From: Candidatus Omnitrophota bacterium
Lineage (GTDB): Bacteria; Omnitrophota; Omnitrophia; Omnitrophales; Aquincolibacteriaceae
Reading direction: 5' to 3'
DNA: 64,000 nucleotides
NCBI GenBank assembly: GCA_023247055.1
Contig: JAHFHF010000003.1
Coordinates: 36,367-100,366 of the forward strand
The translations under genes were made by a program, and so were the position numbers. The notes under the pieces are model-generated. The model was not told the DNA's origin. It made no database searches and was given only the letters and a program-made list of their open reading frames with translations. Position 1 is the first letter of the stretch. Every line of letters starts with the position of its first letter. Positions 50,372 to 50,767 of this stretch are shown here, one piece after another.

Positions 50372-50767
50372 ATGAAAACAGAAAAAAACTTGATTGTGAT
50401 GGCAATGATTTTTGCGCTGGTGTTTGGTTTTTCCAGCATTGGCTCGGTATATGCGATGAGTATGGACGATGCGGATTTTGCGCCGGCTGAAGCTGAGGAA
50501 GTTAGCGCCGCAATGGATGAGTCTATTGCGGAGGCTGCCACGGATGATGCAGCTGATTTTCCCGATGATGCGGATATCGCGGATACGGAGACTGAAGATA
50601 CCGCTGAAGATCCTATTGAGGATATTGGCGATGTTGATATGGGGGATGCGGGAGACTGTAGCACCTCAAATTGCGGTGCTTGTCTAACAAGTTCGAAATG
50701 TTCAGCAAATGCTTCCGCGTGCAATTGGGATACGACAAAAAGTCCAAAATGTCAAATAAGCAAATAA
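50372..50767 (+). CDS. Secreted protein with an extremely acidic linker and a C-terminal 7-Cys module
   Basis: Signal peptide MKTEKNLIVMAMIFALVFGFSSIGSVYA, ~67 aa with ~40% Asp/Glu, then CSTSNCGACLTSSKCSANASACNWDTTKSPKCQ. RBS AAAGGGAGA. Confidence 0.55.
   Translation: MKTEKNLIVMAMIFALVFGFSSIGSVYAMSMDDADFAPAEAEEVSAAMDESIAEAATDDAADFPDDADIADTETEDTAEDPIEDIGDVDMGDAGDCSTSNCGACLTSSKCSANASACNWDTTKSPKCQISK

Follow-up and report, generated by a model that had tools for sequence, protein, structure and literature searches.

The window analyzed here, a stretch of 64,000 nt from contig JAHFHF010000003.1 of a Candidatus Omnitrophota bacterium, contains at 50372-50767 of its plus strand an open reading frame (ORF), referred to below as the target, which encodes a protein with a signal peptide and a Cys-rich C terminus. 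The data showed that the target is a genuine gene, which codes for a small exported protein, that its family has not been described before and is confined to one lineage, and that this family stands in synteny with an operon which encodes an outer membrane efflux protein (OEP), an ABC ATPase, a tetratricopeptide repeat (TPR) protein, a membrane-fusion protein (MFP) and a MacB-type permease. By analogy to known systems, the chances appear about evenly balanced that the target product is a Sec-exported, disulfide-bonded mini-protein, which serves as the cargo of this adjacent MacB-type pump. The role of a pump cargo is more likely than that of an enzyme-modified bufferin-type peptide, an analogy that had been drawn in a preliminary description of the locus. 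The parts of the gene are as follows.

50372-50767, plus strand: target ORF, 131 aa, made of a 28-aa signal peptide, a 67-aa spacer and a 36-aa Cys module
50372-50455, plus strand: signal peptide, aa 1-28, MKTEKNLIVMAMIFALVFGFSSIGSVYA, with predicted cleavage after VYA
50456-50656, plus strand: hyper-acidic spacer, aa 29-95, in which 27 of the 67 residues (40%) are Asp or Glu and none is Lys or Arg
50657-50767, plus strand: 36-aa six-Cys C-terminal module CSTSNCGACLTSSKCSANASACNWDTTKSPKCQISK and the stop codon, with the pattern C(101)..C(110)..C(117)-x-W(119)..C(127)
50190-50371, plus strand: conserved 5′ module with promoter-like sites, 5′ untranslated region (5′UTR) and ribosome-binding site (RBS), defined by a promoter scan and DNA comparison

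As read from the sequence, the first 28 residues are arranged in n, h, and c regions like a Sec signal peptide (MKTEK / NLIVMAMIFALVFGFSSIG / SVYA, followed by MS), with Val at position -3 and Ala at position -1, and the predicted cleavage would leave a mature protein of 103 aa and about 10 kDa. The preliminary description had reported the same signal peptide, the same ORF with two peptide strings, both of which are exact, and a stretch of about 67 residues with about 40% Asp/Glu, which agrees with the spacer defined here. On the other hand, the seven Cys residues which it had assigned to the C-terminal module are in fact six, at positions 96, 101, 104, 110, 117, and 127, separated by loops of 4, 2, 5, 6, and 9 residues. 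The sequence C101-G-A-C104 forms a CxxC motif inside this module, in which Ser, Thr, and Cys together make up 50% of the residues. The spacer had AlphaFold pLDDT values of 43-57 and no secondary structure, and it is probably disordered in view of this model; the single-sequence models of the full protein and of the isolated module were unreliable, with mean pLDDT values of 53.5 and 54.9, respectively. The lack of a lipobox spoke against a lipoprotein, and the lack of an RR motif against a Tat substrate.

The target is considered genuine because its promoter region, 5′UTR, RBS, and signal-peptide codons are kept in other genomes, which is the decisive evidence. The region 50190-50431 of the window is 89% identical in DNA to the related contig L176, and the likeness ends about 20 codons into the ORF. 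When this comparison was divided into parts, the identity was 91% in the 150 nt upstream of the target, 80% in the signal-peptide codons, and 56% in the remainder. The same 150 nt are 69% and 60% identical to the sequences upstream of two genes, A and B, of the related contig L167. The blocks CTTG.A, GTA..AC, and GGAGACTT..ATGAAAA are invariant in the 5′ alignments. Promoter-like sites were found at 50219-50248 (TTAAAA-18-TATGAT) and at 50285-50313 (TTGAAA-17-TACGAC), and the RBS GGGAGA is located at 50359-50364, 7 nt 5′ of the target ATG. No consensus RNA fold was detected in the conserved 5′UTR, and the comparison with Rfam over 49900-52100 gave nothing near threshold. The coding potential was evaluated with a codon model trained on 29 long ORFs of the window. 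The target frame scored +16.7 bits of codon log-likelihood and was the sole positive one among the six frames, with the other five ranging from -39 to -120, and its per-codon score of 0.13 is similar to the values of 0.12-0.18 obtained for the neighboring toxin–antitoxin (TA) genes and for the bufferin precursor gene bufA2 of the window. The view that the target is spurious, a frame open by chance between distant genes, could draw on the first two large searches, which gave no homologue, on the low AlphaFold confidence, and on an overlapping antisense ORF of 136 aa at 50314-50724, which is also open. It is contradicted by the frame-specific codon signal, with -0.33 bits per codon for the antisense ORF, by the RBS, the canonical signal peptide, and homologues of the same build at the same position elsewhere, and the conserved 5′ module together with the signal peptide effectively refutes it, so that its probability is negligible. 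Further contigs carrying the target gene come from the same population, including L001, which is 99.98% identical to the window, and no paralogues of the target were found within the window.

Comparisons of the target with Pfam, NCBIfam, and PADLOC profiles gave no match above cutoff. A word-indexed search with the whole protein against 5.8 billion proteins returned only the target itself, and an exhaustive phmmer search with the Cys module against 1.84 billion representatives returned itself and one spurious repeat protein, P0002. The family was missed by these direct homology searches because the likeness sits in the signal peptide and in the DNA flanks. The relatives' loci were reached through the exporter operon, which consists of the following genes.

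43911-49347, plus strand: five-gene MacB-type tripartite exporter operon, assigned with Pfam and NCBIfam, which ends 1 kb upstream of the target
43911-45458, plus strand: TolC-like OEP
45455-46117, plus strand: ABC ATPase, with the MacB nucleotide-binding domain and DarD as its closest matches
46131-47015, plus strand: TPR protein, which carries a zinc ribbon (CxxC..CxxC) at its N terminus
47012-48121, plus strand: membrane-fusion adaptor
48124-49347, plus strand: MacB_PCD/FtsX permease, below called MacB

A genome scan with MacB identified one orthologous operon, on L004, which is a metagenome-assembled genome of Planctomycetia, with 39-66% protein identity. A metagenome scan with MacB gave relatives at no more than 35% identity among the matches listed. 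The search with the TPR protein gave relatives at 90%, 79%, 48%, 47%, and 43% identity, the last value shared by two proteins, and the same operon was present on their contigs. The gene order of the operon is kept in L004, L167, L173, L175, L179, and L181, and L170 begins at the TPR gene. Directly after MacB, these contigs carry the genes listed below, with the identity of the TPR protein in brackets.

L167/L169 (90%): convergent BrnT/BrnA, followed on the plus strand by a 178-aa and a 104-aa gene
L170-172 (79%): a 104-aa gene
L173 (48%): a 127-aa gene, which is clustered on the minus strand with MauE/DoxX and DsbA-like genes
L175 (43%): a 154-aa gene
L181 (43%): several small Cys-rich proteins, Cys-rich lipoproteins among them

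The signal peptides of the L167 and L170 proteins, which are plainly homologous to that of the target, are set out here with their identity to it.

Target: MKTEKNLIVMAMIFALVFGFSSIGSVYA
L167 gene B: MKKERNLIVMTLVFALAFGFAGSGSVYA, 68%
L167 gene A: MKTETKMIVMTMIFALVLSFTGLKSAYA, 61%
L170 protein: MKTIKCLFVLALVFAMATPLTSVVAYA, 43%

A profile search found seven proteins, including two new members, P0127 and P0128, and the family as defined here comprises eight proteins, all from uncultured bacteria, with several of the contigs derived from groundwater metagenomes. Five of the proteins from the operon loci, and the two added by the profile search, have the build of the target, with a closely related signal peptide, promoter, and 5′UTR. 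None of the eight matched a Pfam or NCBIfam family above cutoff. Pairwise BLASTP comparisons of the target gave 36% identity to the L167 gene B product over residues 1-118 (E=6e-13), 39% identity to P0127 over residues 1-87 (E=1e-11), and a match to the L167 gene A product which covered the signal peptide only (E=4e-9). When the target was left out in building a family hidden Markov model (HMM), it was ranked first among the 1242 ORFs of the window, with an E value of 7.5e-18, as compared to 0.33 for the runner-up. The spacer is acidic or rich in Pro/Ala in all family members and varies in length among them. The pattern C..C..CxW..C is found in six of the eight members; in these six, the residues corresponding to C110, C117, W119, and C127 of the target all align, and C101 aligns in five. 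In the module of L175, CRANASTCEW corresponds to CSANASACNW of the target, with 50% identity over 26 aa and a pairwise E value of 0.002. P0127 and P0128 have the same signal peptides, joined to a different six-Cys module, which has knottin-like spacing and no Trp. Judging from these comparisons, membership in the family is placed on the pre-region (the signal peptide and the 5′ DNA), on position, and on the shared Cys/Trp pattern, and not on demonstrable domain homology. The architecture of signal peptide, acidic stretch, and Cys core, which the preliminary description had pointed out, recurs in the relatives in this way.

The mature parts of these proteins differ markedly in their conservation from the pump. 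The pump proteins of the window are 80-90% identical to those of L167 and 68-82% identical to those of L170, while the DNA coding for the mature parts within the family is 40-56% identical, which is roughly the level of unrelated DNA in such an alignment. The pre-regions group by lineage, with the target next to P0127 and P0125 next to P0128, and both module types, with their different Cys frameworks, are joined to near-identical pre-regions in each lineage. This grouping suggests a 5′ module that stays uniform across paralogues, or one that co-evolves with a lineage-specific partner. The fast divergence of the mature domain points to an effector directed at other organisms or at the environment rather than to a part of the pump.

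The link between the small genes and the pump was evaluated using a heuristic, in which a gene was counted when its product had a signal-peptide-like N terminus, a length of 50-200 aa, and at least four Cys residues after the hydrophobic region, and when it lay no more than 2 kb downstream of MacB. The orthologous TPR-containing operons with enough downstream sequence (n=7) were compared with loci of distant MacB homologues (n=132). A small exported Cys-rich gene was present near MacB in all seven orthologous operons, as compared to two of the 132 control loci, and one of these two looks spurious. The genes outside the operon and the small-gene block differ between the genomes.

A different explanation of the adjacency is that the target is an accessory cassette in a recombination or insertion hotspot, which lies next to MacB by position and has no functional link to the pump. 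The genes next to the target are relevant to this question.

49352-49997, minus strand: VapC (PIN_2) and a VapB-like antitoxin, between MacB and the target
51214-51887: HigB (Gp49) and HigA (HTH_3), downstream of the target

The placement of the target between VapBC and HigBA modules in the preliminary description is hence confirmed by the domain assignments. In the relatives, the position between MacB and the small gene is taken by BrnT/BrnA (L167, L169), by a CopG-type antitoxin (L176), or by nothing (L170). The TA modules are on the minus strand in the window, in L167 (13215-13710), and in L176 (5-280), and those of the window and L167 lie no more than a few bases from the MacB stop codon. 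The presence of three unrelated TA modules at one spot looks like a TA insertion hotspot.

Several observations weigh against the assignment of the target as a pump cargo. The target is cut off from MacB by the convergent VapBC genes and has its own promoter. Its GC content at third codon positions (GC3) of 0.40 and its synonymous codon usage resemble those of TA genes and not those of core genes, and it lies in an islet of foreign-looking composition over about 49200-52000, where the GC content goes down to 41-48%. Because of the separation, the own promoter, and the TA-like composition, the adjacency could partly reflect an accessory-gene hotspot. Moreover, the small genes of L173 and L175 are on the strand opposite to the pump, the small Cys-rich lipoproteins of L004 and L181 have no detectable similarity to the target, the leave-one-out HMMs built from the modules alone or from the mature parts did not detect the target significantly, and the family of eight proteins is tiny. 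The copies of a 42-nt terminator, which flank HigBA, also fit a hotspot. On the other hand, the link was found in seven of seven operons, although at the extremes their pump proteins share only 32-52% identity and their flanks are otherwise different, with or without TA genes, and a hotspot alone would not deliver small exported Cys-rich proteins again and again. Taken together, a purely positional adjacency is considered unlikely.

If the target is the cargo of the pump, its path would start with the crossing of the inner membrane by the precursor via Sec and cleavage after VYA. The six Cys residues of the 36-aa module would then form three disulfides in the periplasm, from which the MacB-type permease and the adaptor would take the mature protein of about 10 kDa; the TolC-like duct would then be its way out to the cell surface or into the medium. 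Disulfide formation in the periplasm is supported because a CxW-type member of the family in L173 is co-oriented with DsbA-like and MauE/DoxX genes. In this contig, the region 11201-13430 of the minus strand encodes three small signal-peptide proteins, one of which is the CxW-type protein of 127 aa, together with MauE/DoxX and a DsbA-like thioredoxin, which suggests a dedicated disulfide-forming unit. The small Cys-rich lipoproteins which follow MacB in L004 (9339-10575) and L181 (4255-6383) flank a conserved Lit-like (PF07314) membrane protein, and they may represent cargo of a comparable kind in lipoprotein form. The TPR protein of the operon starts with MNQCELCG..LPECPQCD and has no signal peptide; as far as can be judged from its sequence, it is probably cytoplasmic. 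MamA and the LcrH/SycD family of TPR chaperones are among its NCBIfam matches below cutoff, and it could act as a pre-export chaperone for the cargo.

The small protein could alternatively serve the pump or the envelope from within the periplasm, as an accessory or in the handling of substrates, for example as a cation- or metal-binding chaperone like CusF, which would stay in the periplasm and bind metal ions by its polyanionic spacer and CxxC module. It is in agreement with this role that a small signal-peptide protein adjoins a tripartite pump, as does CusF, which is encoded in cusCFBA and provides a precedent for a pump-linked metal chaperone, and that 27 acidic residues of the spacer with no base among them are followed by C101-G-A-C104. 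However, no match to HMA, CusF, or any other metal-binding family was obtained, and six Cys residues in the oxidizing periplasm more likely form disulfides. It is also difficult to reconcile with an accessory role that the mature domains are hypervariable, fall into at least two unrelated Cys frameworks, and number between one and three at each locus, in contrast to the 80-90% conservation of the pump. A cargo or effector is favored over a pump subunit or a CusF-like chaperone because the mature domains are extremely variable and multiple. Hence, the accessory role appears improbable.

The bufferin-type analogy of the preliminary description had been accompanied by the observation that no modification enzyme is adjacent to the target. 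The latter holds for the immediate surroundings, yet the window does contain an MNIO maturase 12.2 kb upstream of the target, in the following locus.

35524-36117, plus strand: YceI, bufferin-type locus
36152-36424, plus strand: BufA2 precursor, 90 aa, NF050166, 60.4 bits (cutoff 60)
36424-38136, plus strand: BufB/BufC fusion, 570 aa; BufB is the MNIO (NF050167, 377 bits, cutoff 310; PF05114) and BufC is DUF2063

The window hence holds a true bufferin system, about 12 kb upstream of the target, with its own unrelated precursor. The start of BufB/BufC overlaps the stop codon of its own BufA2 gene, which is an arrangement of translational coupling, and no DoxX gene was seen next to this locus. 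It has been reported that BufA2 proteins have six conserved cysteines, that stand-alone bufferin precursor genes exist, which are still members of the Buf1 or Buf2 families, and, as preliminary results suggested, that the signal peptide is a part of the recognition by BufB-BufC (PMC12452194). The target could in principle be a precursor resembling RiPPs (peptides made by ribosomes and modified after translation), which is modified by an MNIO or radical-SAM enzyme, maybe as a remote substrate of the BufB/BufC at 36424-38136, with Cys residues converted to copper-binding thiooxazoles. Its Sec signal and six Cys residues, which are the same in number as in BufA2, a true BufA2-BufB/BufC system in the same window, and the reported stand-alone precursors and signal-peptide recognition are in line with such a modification. 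However, the target matched neither PF10048 (DUF2282, BufA1) nor NF050166 (BufA2) even at E≤10, its BLASTP comparison with the local BufA2 gave E=2.4, and the Gly-rich C-x-G/N-x-CKG context of the local BufA2 is missing from it. The translational coupling ties BufB/BufC to its own precursor, and the stand-alone precursors from the literature are still Buf1 or Buf2 members. Among the family loci examined, no MNIO, radical-SAM RiPP enzyme, YcaO, or Lan enzyme was found nearby, the contigs of the other genomes showed no MNIO or RiPP enzyme, and the sole radical-SAM gene of the window is of the MoaA type (Mob_synth_C). The co-localization of homologues with MNIO or radical-SAM enzymes, proposed in the preliminary description as a check, was therefore not seen at the family loci, where the conserved neighbor is the MacB-type exporter; the bufferin-type or Cys-modified analogy found no support. 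A modified peptide of this type is very improbable. A lanthipeptide or thiopeptide core was dropped as well, despite the 50% share of Ser, Thr, and Cys in the module, given that genes of the Lan, YcaO, or radical-SAM RiPP type are absent and that the leader is a Sec signal.

Pumps of the MacB type collect their substrates in the periplasm and release them through TolC, and STII is the textbook case of a peptide cargo. Among the known systems, a close one in arrangement is that of the heat-stable enterotoxin STII (STb) of E. coli, which is Sec-translocated, Dsb-oxidized, and exported from the periplasm by MacAB-TolC (PMC5985334). The two systems have in common a small Sec precursor, disulfide formation in the periplasm, which is predicted for the target, and a MacB-type pump with an adaptor and a TolC-like duct, and the pump genes of the target are adjacent to it. 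The proteins themselves are not similar in sequence, and in contrast to STII, which is 48 aa long when mature and has two disulfides, the target has 103 aa, a long acidic spacer, and six Cys residues. The operon also differs from MacAB-TolC in having a separate ATPase and permease, and in having the cytoplasmic TPR/zinc-ribbon protein. Another comparison is with the Aat system, which combines a MacB/LolC-like permease with a separate ATPase, an adaptor, and a TolC-like protein, and whose cargo has about 10 kDa. Aat was described as a MacB/Lol-like composite of type I secretion and Lol elements; its substrate is CexE, a small protein that depends on Sec and whose gene travels together with the exporter (PMC7943197). 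As in CexE or dispersin (Aap) and Aat, the gene of a small Sec-signal protein is linked here to a dedicated exporter, and the small proteins of L004 and L181 are lipoproteins. In contrast to Aat (AatPABCD), the operon has no AatD-like acyltransferase and no sequence similarity was found, and the family has no conserved N-terminal Gly after cleavage (VYA|MS.., AYA|GD.., AYA|AK..), which is different than in CexE. By these comparisons, the target would be an analogue of STII and CexE and not a member of their families. The likeness to bufferins is limited to a small Sec-signal precursor with six Cys residues as in BufA2, and the differences include the absence of an HMM match, another Cys context, no adjacent maturase in the family, and the exporter as the conserved neighbor.

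The precursors of conotoxins, mussel MgCRP-I, and anuran antimicrobial peptides resemble the target only in their architecture, which is that of a prepro Cys-rich protein, and the pro-region of such eukaryotic precursors is often acidic. They are not homologous to it, they use the eukaryotic secretory pathway, and they have defined propeptide processing sites, while no processing site or protease is evident at the target locus. The knottin rule, C-x3-7-C-x3-6-C-x0-5-C-x1-4-C-x4-13-C, is not fitted by the loops of the target, is fitted by those of P0127 (6, 5, 3, 1, 10), and nearly by those of P0128 (10, 6, 3, 1, 10). With small disulfide domains such as kalata B1, the C-terminal domain of the trypanosome variant surface glycoprotein (VSG), and PSI/Paramecium_SA, the CxW modules share the arrangement C..C..C-x-W..C in a domain of about 30-40 residues. 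The profile of the CxW modules compared to the PDB gave E values of 0.063 for the VSG C-terminal domain (2jwg) and 0.36-1.4 for kalata B1, neither of which is significant, and the sequence searches of the PDB with the target module, the P0127 module, and this profile gave nothing significant. The PSI (PF01437) and Paramecium_SA (PF01508) profiles did not match the target; the L170 member scored 17.1 bits with Paramecium_SA, below the cutoff of 21.2. BLASTP of the target with an approximate sequence for the PSI domain of integrin beta3 gave E=0.41, and neither this comparison nor that with the L004 lipoprotein was significant. A SCIFF (six cysteines in forty-five residues) or ranthipeptide precursor was not matched in the NCBIfam scan, which should cover the SCIFF model TIGR03973, and no radical-SAM maturase is adjacent; moreover, SCIFF peptides are not known to have signal peptides. 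As judged by these profile and pairwise comparisons, the target falls into none of the described families that were tested, namely bufferins, SCIFF, PSI/Paramecium_SA, knottins, STII, and CexE. The HMM search of the Cys module suggested in the preliminary description matched no known disulfide-rich domain significantly.

The DNA downstream of the target also has several distinct features.

50768-51057, plus strand: 3′UTR of 290 nt with two units of about 135 nt, each of which carries TAACCGGAC..CCACGGGGAGASGTTAGC
50992-51004, plus strand: GGTGACAGACACC element, inside the target 3′UTR
51058-51101, plus strand: intrinsic terminator of the target transcription unit, a 17-pair hairpin with a U run (-31.8 kcal/mol, z=-6.3)

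The motif CCACGGGGAGASGTTAGC is located at 50799-50816 and 50934-50951, which is the conserved motif pair that had been noticed after the gene in the preliminary description, and its presence there was corroborated, as 0 of 100 shuffled sequences reached three or more matches. A third copy, with three mismatches, is located at 24858-24875, and the form common to the three copies is TAACCGGAC..CC(A/G)(C/G)(G/C)GGGAGASGTTAGC. This third copy immediately precedes a small ORF (24908/24914-25054, 46-48 aa) that encodes a signal peptide, close to the other HigBA copy. A convincing fold common to the motif copies was not found. The pair was not found in the loci of the relatives, and the 290-nt 3′UTR with the motif pair is present only in the organism of the window. 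The near-palindromic GGTGMCAGRCACC, which is often followed by TTTTGGGG, occurs in the window at 50992-51004, at 23716-23728 on the minus strand, and at 6924-6936 on the minus strand. It is also found twice after the P0127 gene in L176 (1247-1259 and 1277-1289), hence after small genes in both organisms, and it may be a repetitive extragenic palindromic (REP)-like element or a terminator.

The target terminator is 85% identical to an element which follows the stop codon of L167 gene A (L167 14698-14770). Copies of its 42-nt hairpin, 97.6% identical, are located at 51061-51102 and at 51901-51942, the latter after higA, and bracket HigBA, which looks like an insertion or recombination footprint. 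An integron attC site was rejected for the 42-nt repeat, as it is a plain terminator hairpin and the R′/R′′ consensus does not fit by eye. An inverted HigBA paralogue, 67% identical, is present at 23801-24541. In the sample ERZ27280021, the assembly is broken in the 5′ end of higB, with one contig ending at 51231 and the next starting at about 51226, a hint that strains may differ at the HigBA insertion. Shortly before the exporter operon, a PS_pyruv_trans gene (42624-43487, minus strand) lies between the two copies (42315-42475 and 43561-43721) of a direct repeat of about 161 nt with 86.5% identity.

For the annotation of similar loci, these data are a warning that a signal peptide and a Cys-rich core are insufficient to call a bufferin-type RiPP, even beside a real bufferin system. 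They also provide a rule for mining, which is to inspect the DNA downstream of OEP-ABC-TPR-MFP-MacB operons. If the target is indeed a pump cargo, MacB-type pumps as protein or peptide secretion devices would extend beyond the few enterobacterial cases, such as STII and CexE or dispersin, to uncultured environmental bacteria. The target and its relatives would then constitute a new family of small disulfide-rich secreted proteins, with the build of a conserved leader and a variable core that is typical of toxins and antimicrobial peptides; in a limited literature search, no description of this build in Sec-dependent bacterial proteins was found. A bolder proposal, which we regard as speculative and rather unlikely as a whole, is that the family is a bacterial counterpart of the animal toxin and antimicrobial-peptide superfamilies. 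In such a counterpart, a pre module of promoter, 5′UTR, and signal peptide, uniform among the paralogues of a lineage, would be joined to interchangeable, fast-diverging disulfide-rich domains of at least two Cys frameworks, and a dedicated MacB/TolC-type pump, with the TPR/zinc-ribbon protein of its operon recognizing the unusually conserved signal peptide, would export them as diffusible or surface effectors with antimicrobial, signaling, or mineral- or metal-binding roles.

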